A stretch of 64,000 nt of DNA from an uncultured Actinomycetes bacterium (GTDB taxonomy: Bacteria > Actinomycetota > Acidimicrobiia > IMCC26256 > PALSA-555), in the NCBI GenBank assembly GCA_963821325.1, contig CAWGDC010000006.1:474060-538059 (forward strand). The letters are read 5' to 3'. Below the pieces are notes generated by a model, which was not told the DNA's origin, made no database searches, and worked only from the letters and a program-made list of their open reading frames with translations. Below, piece by piece: positions 4,856 through 47,182 of this stretch. The stretch's first letter is position 1; the number at the start of each line of letters is the position of its first letter. Made by a program: the position numbers and the translations under genes.

Positions 4856-6211
4856 GTGGTGCAGGCGCTCGAACCAGTGCGGCGCTCCGGGCGCGTCCCG
4901 CCGCACAACCTCGAAGCCGAAGAATCCCTGCTCGGCGCGATGCTGCTCACCCGCGACGCCGTCACCGCCGCCGTCGAGACCGGCGTCGACGCCGGCGACT
5001 TCTACAAGCCGGCCCACGGCCACGTCTTCGAAGCCGTCCTCACCCTCTACGGCCAAGGCGAGCCGATCGACCCCGTCACCGTCGCCGAGGAGCTCCGACG
5101 CGCCGACCTGCTCGAAACCCTCGGGGGCCGCCCGACACTGCTGCGCCTCCAAGCTGCGACCCCCGCCTCGGCGAACGCCAGCCATTACGCCAAGATCGTC
5201 AACGAGCTCGCGCTGCTGCGCCGCCTCATCGGCGTGGCCGGGGACATCGCCGAGATGGGCTACGACGACTCCCAAGACGTCGTCGAGACCATCGACCGCG
5301 CCGAAGCGCTCGTCTTCGAGGTCGCGGAGCACCGCGTCGCCGAGTCCATGGTCAAGATGTCCGACGCGCTGCAAGACACGCTCGACGAGCTCGAAGCGCT
5401 CTACGCGAGCACCGGCGAGATCACCGGAGTGCCGACCGGCTACACCGACCTCGACCGGCTCCTCCTTGGTCTCCAGCCCTCGAACCTCGTGGTGGTCGCA
5501 GCCCGCCCCGGCGCCGGCAAGACGAGCCTGGCGCTCGGCGCCGCCGCGAACGTCGCGATGGTGTCCCGCAAGCCCGTCCTCTTCTTCTCGATGGAGATGG
5601 GCACGCTCGAGCTCACGAAGCGGCTCCTGGCCGGCGAAGCGCGCGTCGACGCCCGACGCCTCCAGACCGGCAACATCCCCGAGCAGGACTGGACCCGCCT
5701 CAGCCACGCGGTCGGTCGCCTCGCCGAGGCCCCCCTCTTCATCGACGACAACCCGCACTGCACGGTCATGGAGATGCGAGCCAAAGCCCGACGCACCAAG
5801 GCCAAGCACGGCGACCTCGGTCTCGTCGTGGTCGACTACCTACAGCTCATGACCCCGATGGGCAAGCGGGCCGAGAACCGCCAGGTCGAGGTCGCCGAGA
5901 TCTCCCGCGGCTTGAAGATCCTGGCCCGCGAGCTGCACTGCCCGGTCATGGCCTGCTCGCAGCTGAACCGCCAGCTCGAGTACCGGCAGGACAAGCGGCC
6001 GATGCTCGCCGACCTCCGCGAGTCCGGCTCCCTCGAGCAGGACGCCGACGTCGTCGCCTTCATCTACCGCGACGACATCTACAACCCGGACTCCGACCAG
6101 CGCGGCACCGCGGAGATCATCGTCGCCAAGCACCGCAACGGACCCACCGGCACCACCCGGCTCGCGTTCGTCGACCGGCTGACGAAGTTCGCCGACATGG
6201 CGCCCGACTAG
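4856..6211 (+). CDS. dnaB: replicative DNA helicase DnaB
   Basis: ORF 4856..6211, 451 aa. It has PPHNLEAEESLLGAML, Walker A GARPGAGKTS, and the SQLNR and ADVV motifs. Its length argues against an intein. Confidence 0.95.
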   Translation: MVQALEPVRRSGRVPPHNLEAEESLLGAMLLTRDAVTAAVETGVDAGDFYKPAHGHVFEAVLTLYGQGEPIDPVTVAEELRRADLLETLGGRPTLLRLQAATPASANASHYAKIVNELALLRRLIGVAGDIAEMGYDDSQDVVETIDRAEALVFEVAEHRVAESMVKMSDALQDTLDELEALYASTGEITGVPTGYTDLDRLLLGLQPSNLVVVAARPGAGKTSLALGAAANVAMVSRKPVLFFSMEMGTLELTKRLLAGEARVDARRLQTGNIPEQDWTRLSHAVGRLAEAPLFIDDNPHCTVMEMRAKARRTKAKHGDLGLVVVDYLQLMTPMGKRAENRQVEVAEISRGLKILARELHCPVMACSQLNRQLEYRQDKRPMLADLRESGSLEQDADVVAFIYRDDIYNPDSDQRGTAEIIVAKHRNGPTGTTRLAFVDRLTKFADMAPD

Positions 6212-6341
6212 CCAGACCACGACCCGCCGCCGGTCGCTTGACTCGTTAGAAATCCCTTGGGGCTACTACCTCGAGAGCCTCCGGCGCCTGTGCGCCACCG
6301 GCACCGGCCAACCGTTCCGCCCCGCGACCTGAAGGACCGGC

Positions 6342-7028
6342 GTGCACCAGACCCGACTCGACGAGCCGTCCGACTACCGCGACCGGCGCGAAGCGCTGCG
6401 CCTCGCTGAGATCGAGCTCATGCGCCAGCGCGAGCGCGTCGCCGCGCTCCGCCGCGCCCTGCCTCCCGGCGCGCTCGTCGACGACTACGTCTTCGAGGAA
6501 GGGCCGGCACGCCTCGACGACGGGGACACGCCGACCACCACGGTCCGGCTCACCGAGCTGTTCCGCTCGCCGTCCCGGCCGCTGCTCATCTACCACTTCA
6601 TGTACGGCAAGGCCCAGACCGAGGCCTGCCCGATGTGCACGCTCTGGATCGACGGGTTCAACAGCGTCGCGACCCACCTGGCCCAGAACGCCGACCTCGC
6701 GATCGCGGCCGCCGCCGACGTCCCGACCCTCCGCGCGCACGCGCGGCACCGCGGCTGGGACCGGCTCCGCCTCCTCAGCTGCGCCGGGAGCACCTTCAAG
6801 TACGACCTCGGCAGCGAGGACCCGGACGGCGTCCAGGACTCCACCATCTCGGTCTTCACCCTCGACCCCGACGGACGGCCGCGGCACACCTACACCGCGC
6901 ACCCGACCATGGCGCCCGACATCAACGAGCGAGGCATCGACCTGCTCTCGCCGGTCTGGCACCTCCTCGACCTCACGCCCCAGGGGCGCGGCGACTGGTA
7001 CGCGCGGCTCGAGTACCCGTCCACCTGA
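6342..7028 (+). CDS. DUF899-type thioredoxin-like protein
   Basis: ORF 6342..7028. It contains YRDRREALRLAEIELMRQRERVAALRRALP...DDYVF and a CPMC motif, typical of DUF899. Confidence 0.75.
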   Translation: MHQTRLDEPSDYRDRREALRLAEIELMRQRERVAALRRALPPGALVDDYVFEEGPARLDDGDTPTTTVRLTELFRSPSRPLLIYHFMYGKAQTEACPMCTLWIDGFNSVATHLAQNADLAIAAAADVPTLRAHARHRGWDRLRLLSCAGSTFKYDLGSEDPDGVQDSTISVFTLDPDGRPRHTYTAHPTMAPDINERGIDLLSPVWHLLDLTPQGRGDWYARLEYPST

Positions 7029-43445: not shown

Positions 43446-43682
43446 ATGCAACCCACCCCGGAGCACGCCCCCCAGAACCGACGCCCTGCGGCGCCCGAGC
43501 AAGAGGAGCTGCTCACCCCGTCCGAGGTCGCGGCCATGTTCCGGGTGAACCCCAAGACCGTCACGCGGTGGGCCCGCTCCGGGAAGATCTCCGCCATCCG
43601 CACCCTCGGCGGGCATCGCCGCTTCCGCAAGAGCGAGATCACCCGCATCCTCGACGACGGCGGCGACGGCTCCGGCGCCTGA
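43446..43682 (+). CDS. BldC-like / excisionase-family MerR-type HTH DNA-binding protein
   Basis: ATG at 43446 in ORF 43122..43682. It has LLTPSEVAAMFRVNPKTVTRWARSGKISAIRTLGGHRRFRKSEI. Its position after purF-purM matches the BldC neighbourhood in Streptomyces. Confidence 0.75.
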   Translation: MQPTPEHAPQNRRPAAPEQEELLTPSEVAAMFRVNPKTVTRWARSGKISAIRTLGGHRRFRKSEITRILDDGGDGSGA

Positions 43683-43704
43683 GCGCCGTCTCGAGCTGGT
43701 CCGG

Positions 43705-43777
43705 TGGCCGGGGCCGGCGTCGATCCGGCGACCCCGCGCTTTTCAGGCGCGTGCTCTGCCAACTGAGCTACCCGGCC
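43705..43777 (-). tRNA. tRNA-Phe (anticodon GAA)
   Basis: Hand fold: acceptor GGCCGGG/CCCGGCC, D-arm GCTC-AGTTGGCA-GAGC, anticodon arm CGCGC-CTGAAAA-GCGCG, T-arm GCCGG-ATCGACG-CCGGC (A at position 54). Confidence 0.88.
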
Positions 43778-43801
43778 GCGTCGACGCCGCAGCGTCGTCG
43801 G

Positions 43802-43876
43802 CGGTCCTGACGGGATTTGAACCCGCGGCCTCCGCCTTGACAGGGCGGCGTGCACTCCAAACTGCACCACAGGACC
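43802..43876 (-). tRNA. tRNA-Asp (anticodon GTC)
   Basis: Hand fold: acceptor GGTCCTG/CAGGACC, anticodon arm CCGCC-CTGTCAA-GGCGG, T-arm GCGGG-TTCAAAT-CCCGT. Confidence 0.92.
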
Positions 43877-43903
43877 TCGAGGAGCGGCGCGTTCGCCGTC
43901 CCG

Positions 43904-43976
43904 TGCCCCCAGGGGAATTCGAATCCCCGTTACCGCCTTGAAAGGGCGGCGTCCTGGGCCACTAGACGATGGGGGC
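43904..43976 (-). tRNA. tRNA-Glu (anticodon TTC)
   Basis: Hand fold: acceptor GCCCCCA/TGGGGGC, anticodon arm CCGCC-CTTTCAA-GGCGG, T-arm GGGGA-TTCGAAT-TCCCC. Confidence 0.92.
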
Positions 43977-44205
43977 TCAGCTCCCCGGAAGGGCACTGCA
44001 TCGTATCAGCGGCGCCCGCCGATCCACCGGGCCCGACATGCACGCGCACGCCGCACCGCGCACCGCGGCGTCGACCTCGGGAGGTGCTGAGCGACGCGAC
44101 GACGGCGCGCCACATGGTCGCGCACCGCGTCGCGGTGTGCCGCCCCGATACCCTGAACGACGGGTGGTGCCGCCGTGTTTGGCGCTACCACACGTCGTCC
44201 ACCTC

Positions 44206-44278
44206 GGGTCGCTAGCTCAACTGGCAGAGCAACGGGCTTTTAACCCGGTGGTTCAGGGTTCGAGTCCCTGGCGGCCCA
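44206..44278 (+). tRNA. tRNA-Lys (anticodon TTT)
   Basis: Hand fold: acceptor GGGTCGC/GCGGCCC (one G-T pair), D-arm GCTC-AACTGGCA-GAGC, anticodon arm ACGGG-CTTTTAA-CCCGG, T-arm CAGGG-TTCGAGT-CCCTG. Confidence 0.92.
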
Positions 44279-45895
44279 CTCGTGCGCAGCGTCGAGCGCG
44301 CACGCATCCCGCCACCTCTCAGGTCGGTGTCGCCGAGCTCGGCGCCGTGTGGTCCCGATCGGCGGTCTCGCTCGTGGGTCCCTCGGTCGAGAGGCGCGCC
44401 GCTTGGGTGACGAGGTAGCGCCGCTCCCGACGTTCGTCGTCCGGGCCGCGGCGGTCCGGAACTCGGCGATCGCGGCCGTGACGAACGTCTCTTGGGATTC
44501 TCCAGCCAGTGCCGTGTCTGGTTGTCACAAGTGGGTGCTGGTGTTGGGGGGTGCTGTTTCGCACGGCTCGTGTGCAGCTTCGAGTGACGCCGGCGCAGCG
44601 TCGACGGCTCGTCGGGTTGTTGCGAGCGGGTGGGGATGTGTGGGCGGCGCTCATCGAGGTGAACGAGGCTCGGTTCCGCCGCCACGCCAGGCCGATCTTC
44701 GGGTATCAGGCGTGGTGTTGCGAGATCGCCGGCGTGGAGGTTGGGGAGCTGTCGGTGGCGGCGATGCGCTCGGTGGTGCGCCGCTACTCGAGCGCCTGCT
44801 GTGAGGTCGCGAAGCGTAAGCGGGCCGGCGAACGGGCCCGCTACCCGCGCCGCAAACGGGGCCTGGTCCCGCTGCGCTGGTCCACCGGCACCTTCAGCGT
44901 CGAGGGTCGGCGGGTGCGCGTATCGATGGCCCAAGGTGTGGCACCGTGCTGGCTGCGGTTGTCCCGCCCGATCCCGTATCCGACCGCGTCGGTGCGTTCG
45001 GTGACCCTGCTGGTCGACGCGGGGCGCCTCGTCCTCGACGTGACCGCCGGCCTCGAGGTCGAGGACCACGACCTGGACCCAACCCGCGTCGCCGGCGTCG
45101 ATCTCGGGATCATCCACCCCATCGCCGCTCGCAGCGCCGAGCAGGCACTGCTGGTCTCGGGGCGGGCCCTGCGCGCCGAAGACCGCCTGCACCTCGCTGA
45201 CACCAAAGCCCGCCACCGCAAGATGGACCCCAGAAAACCCCGACCCGGGCAGCGAGGCTCGCGGCGCTGGCGACAGCTCCGGGCCAAGCAGCGCCGCGCC
45301 GCGGCCGCGAACCAGCGCCGGGTCCGCCAAGCTCACCACGAAGCCGCCCGAACCCTCATCGACTGGGCCATCGCCCAACGCATCGGCACCCTCGTCGTCG
45401 GCGACCCCAAAGGCATCACCACCAAAGATGCCGGGGCGGTGCACAACCGGCGGCTGCGCAGCTGGCGGCGCACGCATCTCATGGGCGCCATCACCGACAA
45501 AGCCGAACGGGCCGGCCTCACCGTCGAACGCGTCAACGAACGCGGCACCTCCAGCACCTGTCCCCACTGCCGTCACCGGGTCCCCAAACCCTCGGGACGC
45601 AACTTCTCGTGTCCCCACTGTGGACACGACGGGCATCGCGACCTCGTCGCCGCCCACAACATCGCCGCCACACGCGGCGGAACCATCACGACCAGACAAG
45701 TGGTCGTGGAGCACCGTCGCGTCGGAACCCCGACCCAGCGACGTGACCGCCGCCGCCACCACATGGACCAGCGTCGGTCCTGCCCGGCCCCGGGCCGCCC
45801 CGCCACCCCCGACGGGGAGTCGCTCGCAGCACACCACGCCTGCGAGGATCAACCAACCCCGCGCCCTACCAGCGCACACGTTGGCTGACGAGGCA
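44279..45895 (+). mobile_element. solo-tnpB IS200/IS605-family (IS1341-like) element; ends not defined (maximal bounds given)
   Basis: The tnpB ORF with no tnpA fills the interval between tRNA-Lys (ends 44278) and the stop of the next gene (45896). Subterminal hairpin candidates lie at 44331-44344, 44429-44489 and 45823-45846. Confidence 0.5.
44551..45888 (+). CDS. tnpB: RNA-guided endonuclease TnpB (IS200/IS605 OrfB family)
   Basis: ORF 44509..45888; GTG at 44551 or 44509. The split RuvC is present: RVAGVDLGIIHP (D), QAHHEAARTLIDWA (E), GHRDLVAAHNIA (D). The zinc ribbon is CPHCRH...CPHCGH. Confidence 0.9.
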   Translation: MLFRTARVQLRVTPAQRRRLVGLLRAGGDVWAALIEVNEARFRRHARPIFGYQAWCCEIAGVEVGELSVAAMRSVVRRYSSACCEVAKRKRAGERARYPRRKRGLVPLRWSTGTFSVEGRRVRVSMAQGVAPCWLRLSRPIPYPTASVRSVTLLVDAGRLVLDVTAGLEVEDHDLDPTRVAGVDLGIIHPIAARSAEQALLVSGRALRAEDRLHLADTKARHRKMDPRKPRPGQRGSRRWRQLRAKQRRAAAANQRRVRQAHHEAARTLIDWAIAQRIGTLVVGDPKGITTKDAGAVHNRRLRSWRRTHLMGAITDKAERAGLTVERVNERGTSSTCPHCRHRVPKPSGRNFSCPHCGHDGHRDLVAAHNIAATRGGTITTRQVVVEHRRVGTPTQRRDRRRHHMDQRRSCPAPGRPATPDGESLAAHHACEDQPTPRPTSAHVG

Positions 45896-46450
45896 CTACG
45901 CGGGCCGGCCGCTGAAGTTCAAGAGCCGGGTCTGGGCGTCGGCGCCCGGTCGGGGCTCGATCTTCGGCGCGAACCCGCCGGGTCGGCGCAGGGCCTCGTC
46001 GAGGGGCGCGAGGAACTCGCTGGCCTTGGCGACGGCGGTGGGGTTGAGCCGGTCGTCCTGGCCCGTGGCCCGGGCGAGGTCCCAGGTATGCACCAGCGTG
46101 TCGGCGCAGAGGAGCCGGCCCACCAGCGTCTCGAAGGGCTGCTCGCCGAAGGGGCCGCCGCTGATCACGCGTGTGGCCTGGTCGGGGTCGTGCAGCGCGT
46201 CGCGGACCGCGGCCGTCGCCGCTGTCCACCGCGCGGGGAGCTCGGTGTCGGCGTCGGCGGCGGGCGGCTCGGACCCGTCGAGGCCGGCCAGCACCCGGTG
46301 GTGGGTGTCGATCACGTGCGCCACGACCTCGCGGGCGTCCCAGTCGGTGCACGGCGACGGCGCGGCCCAGCCGCCGTCCGACGAGATGCCGGCCACGCGG
46401 GCCGTGAAGCCGTCGGCGATCGTCTCGTACCGGTCGGACACCTCGGTCAT
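45896..46450 (-). CDS. DinB-superfamily / TIGR03086-like mycothiol-maleylpyruvate-isomerase N-terminal domain protein
   Basis: ORF 45896..46450(-), 184 aa. It has PSPCTDWDAREVVAHVI and ADTLVHTWDLARATG. Confidence 0.7.
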   Translation of the reverse strand: MTEVSDRYETIADGFTARVAGISSDGGWAAPSPCTDWDAREVVAHVIDTHHRVLAGLDGSEPPAADADTELPARWTAATAAVRDALHDPDQATRVISGGPFGEQPFETLVGRLLCADTLVHTWDLARATGQDDRLNPTAVAKASEFLAPLDEALRRPGGFAPKIEPRPGADAQTRLLNFSGRPA

Positions 46451-46534
46451 CGCCGGGACCGTACCGCGCCGGCTGCTCGACGCCGGAGGCCGACCGCGAC
46501 GCCCCCGAGAGGGGCACGACGCCCCACCGCCGCG

Positions 46535-47182
46535 TCAGCCCGTGGCGCCGAGCCCCGTCGGGCAGGAGACCCCGGTCCCGCCGAGCCCGCAATACCCGAA
46601 CGGGTTCTTCGCCAGGTACTGCTGGTGGTACGGCTCGGCGTAGTAGAACTCGCCGGCCGGCTCCACGTCCGTGGTGATCGTGCCGCGGCCGGCGTCCGCC
46701 AGCGCGGCCTGATACCGCGCCAGGGACGCGCGCGCCGCGCTCGCCTGCGCGTCGTCGGTCGTGTAGATCGCCGAGCGGTACTGGCTCCCGACGTCGTTGC
46801 CCTGACGCATCCCCTGCGTGGGGTCGTGGTGCTCCCAGAACGTGCGCAGCAGCGTCTCGTACGACAGCACCGCCGGGTCGAACACGACGAGCACCGCCTC
46901 GGCGTGTCCCGTCCGGCCCGAGCACACCTCCTCATAGGTCGGGTTCGGCGTGAAGCCCCCGGCGTAGCCGACCGCGGTCGTGTAGACGCCGGGCAGGCTC
47001 CAGTACTGCTTCTCGGCGCCCCAGAAGCAGCCCATCGCGAACTCGGCGCGGGCGAGGCCGTCCGGGAACGGCGGGACCTGGGGCGTGTCGAGCACGGCGT
47101 GGCGCCCGAGGCCCGGCATGGGCTCCGCTCGTCCGGGCAGCGCCCGATCCCGGTCGACCAGCTTCGTCTTCGCTCCGAACAT
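46535..47182 (-). CDS. msrA: peptide-methionine (S)-S-oxide reductase
   Basis: ATG at 47182 (GGGAGA upstream) within ORF 46535..47239(-). It has [17 protein letters not shown] and YHQQYL. Confidence 0.92.

Follow-up and report, generated by a model that had tools for sequence, protein, structure and literature searches.

The 64,000-nucleotide (nt) stretch analyzed here, referred to in its full length as the window, comes from contig CAWGDC010000006.1 of an uncultured bacterium of the class Acidimicrobiia and carries one copy of a TnpB element, a mobile element built around tnpB, the gene for an RNA-guided nuclease. An earlier reading of the same letters, hereafter the original prediction, had described this copy as a solo TnpB element with intact RuvC and zinc-ribbon residues and a candidate guide RNA (omega-RNA) at its 3′ end, next to a tRNA cluster. 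The parts of the element and its predicted guide are as follows.

44478-44550, + strand: truncated left element end, beginning GTGAC...
44551-45888, + strand: tnpB open reading frame (ORF), GTG start, TGA stop, 445 amino acids (aa)
45658-45898, + strand: omega-RNA-like scaffold, made up of the last 77 codons of tnpB and 10 nt; its 5′ limit is approximate
45867-45896, + strand: right terminal inverted repeat, ...GCACACGTTGGCTGACGAGGCAC, matching the inverted repeat of the TnpB-element family
45897-45898: TA target dinucleotide, right copy of a presumed duplication
45899-45918, + strand: predicted guide segment CGCGGGCCGGCCGCTGAAGT, in the flanking DNA, 3′ end of the TIGR03086 gene

The ORF at 44551-45888 is a TnpB with the Cas12f/TnpB fold. 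Its product scores 138 bits against the NCBIfam model guided_TnpB NF040570 (cut-off 100), 67.9 bits against Pfam PF07282 (Cas12f1-like_TNB; cut-off 26.3) and 37.7 bits against PF01385 (OrfB_IS605; cut-off 30.5), and an AlphaFold2 model built with 32 homologues (mean predicted local distance difference test score, pLDDT, of 81) retrieves AsCas12f, OsCas12f, ISFba1 TnpB, ISDra2 TnpB and Fanzor2 as its best Foldseek matches (expect values, E, of 1e-12 to 1e-20 overall and 1e-16 to 1e-20 for Cas12f and TnpB), bearing out the solo TnpB of the original prediction. The motifs listed there are all present as described, with GVDLG at aa 182-186, HHEAA at 262-266, HRDLVAAHN at 362-370 and the CxxC pairs as CPHC at 337-340 and 354-357, and the absence of tnpA remarked on at the same time agrees with the lack of any visible transposase ORF within ~5 kb of tnpB. 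Exact look-ups of the window TnpB and of a neighbouring protein returned no record.

The catalytic site assigned to these motifs stands at two of its three residues. The RuvC-I Asp (D184, 45100-45102, in GVDLG) and the RuvC-III Asp (D364, 45640-45642, in HRD) are invariant in the 32 homologues and align with those of solved Cas12f, but HHEAA does not hold as RuvC-II: its Glu is replaced by Gln in several homologues, and the alignment places Gly284 (45400-45402, in LVVGDP) opposite the IQMEDL of solved Cas12f, revealing that the canonical RuvC-II Glu, defined as the one at the end of β4 (xxxEDL), is absent. In the AlphaFold2 model β4 ends at G284, and E330 (45538-45540, in ERGTSSTCP), 46 residues downstream, follows directly after the β5 strand 324-328; Gly284 and E330 are both invariant in the 32 homologues, which span 55-90% identity. 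In the RIIr-5 clade a Gly at RuvC-II is compensated by an alternative Glu on β5 (PMC10691335), and in "TnpB2" and Fanzors the alternative Glu, ~45 residues away, is essential for cleavage, with activity reported for TvTnpB and a Fanzor (PMC10530073). The rearranged subclass is defined by Gly or Pro at the canonical site and a Glu ~45 residues downstream on β5, the arrangement that G284 and E330 (at +46) present. Placed by motif, not by phylogeny, the TnpB site is of this known rearranged RIIr-5/TnpB2 type, with E330 as the likely catalytic Glu, and because G284 and E330 match the published RIIr-5, TnpB2 and Fanzor arrangement, the RuvC site is probably active, using D184, E330 and D364. The predicted CxxC...CxxC ribbon is likewise found, as a C4 zinc ribbon between RuvC-II and RuvC-III conserved among homologues (C337/C340, 45559-45570, and C354/C357, 45610-45621; C337, C340 and C357 invariant, C354 nearly so). 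Over residues 1-369 the ratio of nonsynonymous to synonymous substitution rates (dN/dS) is 0.16-0.22 against three relatives, indicating that the TnpB is under purifying selection; the 1338 nt of the ORF contain no frameshift or stop, all invariant family residues are retained, and private substitutions relative to kin are few.

The likeness to RIIr-5/TnpB2 (PMC10691335), and to its Thermoplasma volcanium member TvTnpB (PMC10530073), extends from the Gly at RuvC-II and the alternative Glu at the end of β5 to the retained Asp residues of RuvC-I and RuvC-III, the C4 zinc ribbon and a guide RNA whose coding sequence occupies the 3′ end of the gene, no more than 250 bp from the element end. TvTnpB, however, is archaeal and resides in an IS605 element with a Y1 TnpA, whereas the window element has IS630-type repeats and no transposase. 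The overall fold is shared with ISDra2 TnpB (8H1J, 8EXA; template modelling score, TM, of 0.74 normalised to target), and at a TM of 0.57 to Fanzor2 the structure is no nearer to Fanzor2 than to Cas12f or ISDra2 TnpB.

A guide RNA transcribed from the tnpB 3′ end and the right element end had been proposed in the original prediction, together with a tail of tnpB constrained as nucleic acid and a CTCGCAG-N10-CTGCGAG hairpin at 45823-45846. Covariation among relatives points to a structured, omega-RNA-like scaffold in this position, composed of nine helices (all on the + strand) and a tail.

H1: 45663-68 / 45674-79
H2: 45687-94 / 45701-08
H3: 45721-25 / 45730-34
H4: 45745-53 / 45771-79
H5: 45782-86 / 45791-95
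H6: 45798-802 / 45813-17
H7: 45823-29 / 45840-46, the CTCGCAG-N10-CTGCGAG hairpin
H8: 45849-57 / 45880-88, including the TGA stop of tnpB
H9: 45861-64 / 45872-75
45889-45898: single-stranded tail of the scaffold

Close copies of the element are almost invariant over the last ~400 nt, and relatives of 50-85% identity obtained in a metagenome scan carry compensatory changes after RuvC-III. Run on a plain MAFFT alignment, RNAalifold yielded only a partial structure, because the variable hairpins were misaligned, and two covariance models were used instead, neither of which included the window: R1, built from 11 relatives for the 5′ half, and R2, built from 19 sequences of a ~57%-identical subfamily for the 3′ half. 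A scan with omega-RNA covariance models had been suggested as a check of the original prediction; R1 matches the window at 45658-45797 (92 bits, E 3e-17) and R2 at 45793-45899 (49 bits, E 5e-14), each with no other site in the window. In the R1 alignment 94.7% of cells are paired (83% when shuffled), double changes occur in 22 of 34 pairs, and the covariation score is 0.32, against 0.11 in shuffles and 0.02-0.05 with the partners slid; the corresponding values for R2 are 86.7% (67.6% when shuffled), 35 of 38 pairs and 0.35, against 0.11 and 0.03-0.06. The hairpin singled out originally proves to be helix H7 of the conserved scaffold, kept in 72 distinct sequences with 90% of cells paired and double changes in 9 of its 12 pairs. 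In the window sequence each of the nine helices pairs, none with more than one mismatch, and the single-sequence fold of the window scaffold has a z-score of -3.7. An Rfam 15 scan of 43500-46600 at E<=1 returned tRNAs only, with no family on the scaffold.

The substitution pattern changes at the same place. The synonymous rate (dS), 0.33-0.56 upstream, is 0.10-0.16 in the RNA overlap, lower by 3-4 fold or about 3.5-fold, while dN/dS rises from ~0.2 to 0.4-1.3. Given this low dS and high dN/dS, the predicted disorder of residues 402-445 and the different frames in which homologous TnpB ORFs end, the comparison indicates that the far tail of tnpB is constrained as RNA rather than as protein, in keeping with what had been proposed from the letters. 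The description of the last 60 or so codons as low-complexity applies to part of them: residues up to ~400 are strongly conserved, and only 402-445 are predicted to be disordered. One segment, HRRxG..RRDRRRH..RSCPAPGRP, shows conservation whether it is read as protein or as RNA. The dS values, the fold z-score, the helix pairing in the window and the disorder prediction constitute support that is independent of R1 and R2.

Conservation among copies stops exactly at 45898/45899, beyond which the flanks are unrelated, so that 45899 onward is the predicted guide, with a length assumed from other TnpBs; the sequence 45899-45918 is unique in the window. The right inverted repeat doubles as the 3′ strand of H8 and H9, the scaffold tail and the last codons of tnpB (..HVG and stop). 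ISDra2 shares this layout, with a scaffold overlapping the ORF at its 3′ end and a guide taken from the DNA just beyond the right end, and the presumed homing logic is the same. ISDra2 differs in its canonical RuvC-II Glu, hairpin ends, Y1 TnpA and TTGAT motif; no similarity between the two RNAs was found at the sequence level, the Rfam scan above gave no match here, and in the window element the scaffold, its short tail aside, lies wholly in the ORF. In two related loci R2 also matches the opposite strand ~140-240 nt upstream of tnpB (L043 2257-2362 (-) and L066 2259-2364 (-); 28-30 bits), and some elements therefore seem to contain the RNA 3′ half a second time, inverted, over ~100 nt of their left end, making the repeats much longer there.

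The ends of the element were established from its relatives, as the original prediction had advised, copies being found in different loci and repeat pairs in at least 16 of them. The relatives closest to the window copy, at 83-90% identity, have unrelated genes around them. A scan of the genome collection gave only two true relatives. Two diverged TnpB paralogues, P0011 and P0025 (83% and 75% identical to the window protein), lie on one uncultured actinobacterial contig, CAWKGF010000002.1 (1.32 Mb; L005/L006), and the TnpB family is therefore multi-copy within genomes. The relatives carry terminal inverted repeats of ~30 bp, CTAGTGCC...GGCACTAG. At most left ends the sequence is CTAGTGCC-N6-GGCAACGTTTGC, the reverse complement of the right end, with CTAGTGCC followed by GTGAC; on the right side conservation stops at ...GGCACTA(G), and intact relatives are flanked as G-C-TA[GTGCC...GGCAC]TA-G. 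In the window, an inverted-repeat search recovered the right end only, and the right-end sequences were sought elsewhere in the window without success, leaving the tnpB element single-copy in the 64 kb.

Of 21 unique flanks, 20 have a G immediately 5′ of the left CTAG, whereas no base is favoured immediately 3′ of the right CTAG, an asymmetry that would be the pattern expected from a TnpB target-adjacent motif. IS630 elements prefer CTAG/TA targets. The preferred target of the TnpB element, CTAG, is a strongly avoided tetranucleotide in the window, with 15 occurrences where dinucleotide-preserving shuffles predict 55 +/- 7; two of the 15 sites lie inside the adjacent tRNA genes (43962 and 44212). 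Since CTAG is avoided and the junctions create TAG, convergent genes end exactly at the right end of the element, both in the window and beside two or more relatives; in three unrelated contexts the called stop of the neighbour is the TAG formed by the target TA and the first repeat base (L001 7313, L002 1517 and window 45896).

These ends bear on the nature of the element. The original prediction implied an IS200/IS605 architecture, that is, an IS1341-group solo TnpB with subterminal hairpin ends, mobilised by a Y1 TnpA in trans, whose left palindromes would be left-end hairpins with the target-adjacent motif just 5′ of them. The label "IS605 OrfB family transposase" carried by homologues and the Pfam OrfB_IS605 match speak for such an origin, as does the fact that solo TnpBs are mostly of the IS1341-group type (PMC10691335). 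However, neither IS200/IS605 nor IS607 elements have terminal inverted repeats like the ~30-bp ones found in relatives (PMC13565253), these repeats match IS630-family elements, the target is CTAG/TA, not one of 88 related loci has a Y1 or serine recombinase beside the TnpB and no transposase ORF recurs there, and the left palindromes turn out to be host DNA or to straddle a deletion junction, as set out below. We regard the IS200/IS605 reading as scarcely credible. Identity with IS607, whose elements encode a serine-recombinase TnpA, lack inverted repeats and usually end in GG (PMC13565253), was likewise dismissed on account of the inverted repeats, the CTAG ends and the absence of a serine recombinase nearby.

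The connection to IS630 emerged from a repeat scan of viral contigs in IMG/VR, where IS630-type right ends without TnpB were found at L092 1000-1120 and L094 4100-4210 (...AACGTTGCCTGATGCGGCACTAG), one of them preceded by a transposase C-terminus remnant of about 30-37 aa with the peptide HAEQASMIRRYIAWRNRNTRDRRL. An unrecognised ORF of 237 aa stands before the other, and the L094 contig encodes phage portal proteins. Hidden Markov model scans of the 37-aa remnant gave no match, but tblastn identified it as the C-terminus of annotated IS630 family transposases on 68 Streptomyces and Rhodococcus plasmids. The Rhodococcus ruber element (pYYL1.1, WP_102032121.1) starts aCTAGTGCCGCAGCC... and ends ...GGCGAACGTTGCATGATTCGGCACTAGtt, and that of Streptomyces flavofungini (WP_289956655.1) ends ...GGCCAACGTTGCCTGACGCGGCACTAG. 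Both thus end ...AACGTTGC(C/A)TGA...GGCACTAG, finishing in ...CACTAG as the TnpB elements do, and the Rhodococcus element starts CTAGTGCC, identical to the TnpB relatives. The inner AACGTTGC motif and the TGA stop occupy the same offsets in the right ends of both kinds of element, the IS630 transposase ORFs ending RANVA-stop inside the repeat and the TnpB ORFs ANV(A/G)-stop. In the terminal 34 nt, the window matches the Streptomyces right end at 24/34 positions and the Rhodococcus right end at 21/34, and relative L001 matches the Streptomyces end at 27/34. On the strength of these shared terminal inverted repeats, the TnpB family is, judging by sequence, a transposase-less (non-autonomous) derivative of IS630-type elements; it keeps only the ends of the actinobacterial IS630 elements, which encode a 377-aa DDE transposase and have no TnpB or structured 3′ RNA. 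A tblastn of the TnpB itself against plasmids, tried for clues to its context, produced only matches of <35% identity and no clue.

Earlier work has described both IS630-linked TnpBs whose ends are symmetrical and solo TnpBs that are mobilised in trans (PMC10691335). The DDE-6 branch (PMC10691335) and the Fanzors of Tc1/mariner-type elements share with the window family a TnpB-family nuclease, symmetrical inverted-repeat ends and a TA target; Fanzors also share the rearranged catalytic site and a 5′ target duplication that is probably part of the nuclease motif, as stated for them (PMC13565253). DDE-6 elements, in contrast, encode an IS630 transposase and a helix-turn-helix protein beside tnpB, whereas the window family is transposase-less in 88/88 loci.

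The history of this particular copy can be read from the host sequences on its two sides.

44206-44279, + strand: tRNA-Lys(UUU), called by ARAGORN and by Rfam tRNA (64 bits); a host gene outside the element, in the same orientation as tnpB
44280-44477, - strand: host spacer and last ~160 nt of a DUF6596-family gene, a deletion remnant
44475-44477: deletion junction, GCC; host homology to L091 stops at 44477
45896-46450, - strand: convergent host gene of the TIGR03086/MDMPI_N family (Pfam MDMPI_N), 184 aa, full length

A related genome, L091, shows the same thiolase-PMSR-TIGR03086 synteny, with a TIGR03086 protein at least 90% identical and no tnpB. Its TIGR03086 gene ends ...GGCCGGCCCGCG TAG CCGACG, with a single TA, and the minus strand of the window reads ...GGCCGGCCCGCG TAG TGCC...; the comparison of this empty site with the right junction of the window places the element exactly on the TA of the TIGR03086 TAG stop codon. 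On the minus strand, TA 45897-45898 and the first repeat base form that stop, which is already present in the empty site, and TIGR03086 orthologues, of 182-184 aa, have the same end point as the window gene. The C at 45899 belongs to the flank (target GCTAC), and the empty allele of L091 carries the predicted guide sequence with ~one mismatch, preceded by GGCTA. Two other genomes, L089 and L090, had been considered as empty sites; their neighbour orthologues are 71-76% identical, too diverged or rearranged, and L091 was used.

On the left side, window 44206-44477 is ~90% identical to L091 6204-6530, comprising the end of the DUF6596 gene, the spacer and the tRNA-Lys, itself conserved in L091 at 6444-6518. 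The DUF6596-family gene of L091 is complete at 5521-6363, and the spacer and remnant of the window correspond to 6204-6443; relative to L091 4553-6443, the window is without a YCII-like gene and most of the DUF6596 gene. The simplest account of these alignments would be that ~1.65 kb was deleted in the window lineage and that the left terminus was lost with it, along with two host genes, leaving an element that is not intact. The deletion would have taken the first 5-8 nt of the left repeat, the terminal CTAGT(GCC) being missing in the window, and GCC 44475-44477 is common to the host (..GATCGCGGCC) and to positions 6-8 of the left repeat CTAGTGCC, a 3-nt microhomology. Compared with close relatives, the remaining left end carries a 17-nt insert, ATTCTCCAGCCAGTGCC (44497-44513), followed by a conserved GTGTCTGGTTGTCACA block up to the start codon; an alternative in which the left end starts at CCAGTGCCGTGTCTGG (44499-44514) and has undergone an internal deletion is less economical. 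The origin of 44478-44515 as host intergenic DNA was rejected, its alignment to L091 and L090 being no better than that of shuffles (264/500 and 203/500).

Both left-side hairpins put forward as parts of the element exist as sequences, but are host DNA or straddle the junction, and are marginal against chance. The 14-nt palindrome at 44331-44344 lies in the host spacer, is not conserved in L091 and was equalled in 16/300 mononucleotide shuffles. The 10-nt inverted repeat GACGTTCGTC/GACGAACGTC (44429-44438/44480-44489; 11/300 mononucleotide shuffles, marginal) has its left arm in the host DUF6596 remnant and its right arm in the element.

We consider it probable that 44478-45898 holds one copy, shortened on the left, of a non-autonomous, IS630-ended element of ~1.41 kb carrying tnpB and an omega-RNA, belonging to a group found in Acidimicrobiia-type actinobacteria whose ends, by sequence comparison, are of the IS630-family (Tc1/mariner-type, DDE) type. 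On this account, an IS630-family transposase encoded elsewhere would have moved the element by cut-and-paste into (G)CTA(G), duplicating the TA. The 3′ end of the tnpB mRNA would be processed into the scaffold, its 3′ extension from 45899 serving as guide, and the TnpB-RNA complex would read a 5′ motif of ~GCTA, which includes the left TA, and a guide match of ~16-20 nt. The predicted target, GCTA followed by CGCGGGCCGGCC..., would be the unoccupied allele, which the complex would cut and which repair from the occupied copy would convert, restoring the element; the element itself would be spared, as its own right junction reads ACTA, not GCTA. With its left inverted repeat gone, the window copy is probably unable to transpose, and hence stuck, and it may still make an active nuclease-RNA complex.

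Several points weigh against this account. Covariation was counted on alignments fitted to R1 and R2, which biases it toward structure, and we infer the 5′ end of the RNA, the length of the guide and the GCTA motif. No IS630 transposase is found in the 64-kb window by tblastn or beside the 88 related loci, and the IS630 partner is for this reason identified through shared ends only. Since the empty site was read in a related genome and not in the same strain, insertion followed by deletion is the most economical reading of the order of events; the TA duplication has to be presumed for the window copy, since the left junction is lost, and 44477 may be a point of mis-assembly, as the source seems to be a metagenome-assembled contig.

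Loss of the left end also opens two other views of the present state of the copy. According to the first, the copy is a functionless relic, stranded so recently that ORF and RNA have not had time to decay. The truncation, the single copy in 64 kb and the small number of private protein substitutions relative to kin are what such a relic would display, and no sigma-70-like promoter was detected upstream of tnpB, in a promoter and terminator scan that is uninformative in GC-rich DNA. Against it, the ORF is undamaged, every invariant family residue is kept and the nine helices still pair, and read-through transcription could come from the tRNA gene that lies 270 nt upstream and points the same way. 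A relic, which we hold to be improbable, overlaps with the truncated IS630-ended element preferred here and differs from it on present-day activity only.

In the second view, the TnpB has been domesticated for a host job, such as RNA-guided repression or cleavage at the locus bounded by the TIGR03086 gene and tRNA-Lys, much as TldR-type regulators act. An immobilised copy with an intact ORF and all RNA helices kept, and a guide matching the 3′ end of a host gene, would fit this role. TldRs are described as nuclease-dead, however, with RuvC catalytic residues lost or the C-terminus truncated, and as conserved in host synteny, and the rearranged triad and zinc ribbon of the window TnpB are intact; the closest relatives (83-90%) occupy unrelated loci and are not syntenic, so that there is no sign of vertical retention at the window site; L091 is without the gene altogether; and the dN/dS values mostly reflect the history of the family, not of the window copy alone. 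Domestication appears very improbable.

The left-truncated element, real but ordinary, is a TnpB/omega-RNA module of known type in an IS630-type shell, and it leaves the current understanding of the TnpB mechanism unchanged. For annotation, the "IS605 OrfB" label is misleading and is better read as a rearranged-site TnpB in an IS630-type shell whose last 77 codons double as guide-RNA scaffold. The locus adds a bacterial, high-GC case to the TnpB-IS630 association that has been proposed as a bridge to eukaryotic Fanzors, gives a testable prediction of motif (~GCTA, including the TA duplication) and guide (45899 onward), and forms with L091 a natural pair of occupied and empty alleles for homing. 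The compact 445-aa nuclease with its mapped RNA is also a candidate editor for GC-rich hosts.

A sister subfamily with the same repeats (~55-60% identical TnpB) carries cCTTGACGG-N17-TCGAACATCAGTTCG directly before the ATG (L073 1040-1090; also L021, L024, L027, L031, L048, L054, L063, L079 and others), its left end combining a -35-like box with a perfect actinobacterial LexA/SOS box. TCGAAC-N4-GTTCG is present upstream of tnpB in 34/76 loci, with ~eight more carrying TAGAAC-N4-GTTCGA by eye, which suggests that TnpB expression in the sister subfamily could be damage-inducible; upstream of the window tnpB the LexA box is absent. A RecA-independent (PafBC-type) promoter motif was also considered and dropped, a strict match upstream of tnpB occurring in only 2/76 loci. 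It is conceivable, though rather unlikely, that these elements make up an undescribed, widespread actinobacterial lineage in which IS630-type elements swapped their DDE transposase for a Fanzor-like (Gly/alternative-Glu) TnpB, with a scaffold wholly in the ORF that ends in the transposase-binding repeat and a sister branch bearing a -35-like TTGACG and a perfect LexA box. Were this so, homing would be DNA-damage-inducible and tied to a transposition that already leaves a double-strand break.

On the far side of tRNA-Lys, the genes for tRNA-Phe, tRNA-Asp and tRNA-Glu adjoin it on the other strand. Directly upstream of this cluster, the end of a short ORF (43530-43682, +; LLTPSEVAAMFRVNPKTVTRWARSGKISAIRTLGGHRRFRKSEI) encodes an excisionase/MerR-like helix-turn-helix, which by eye resembles a conserved small actinobacterial regulator rather than an integrase partner.

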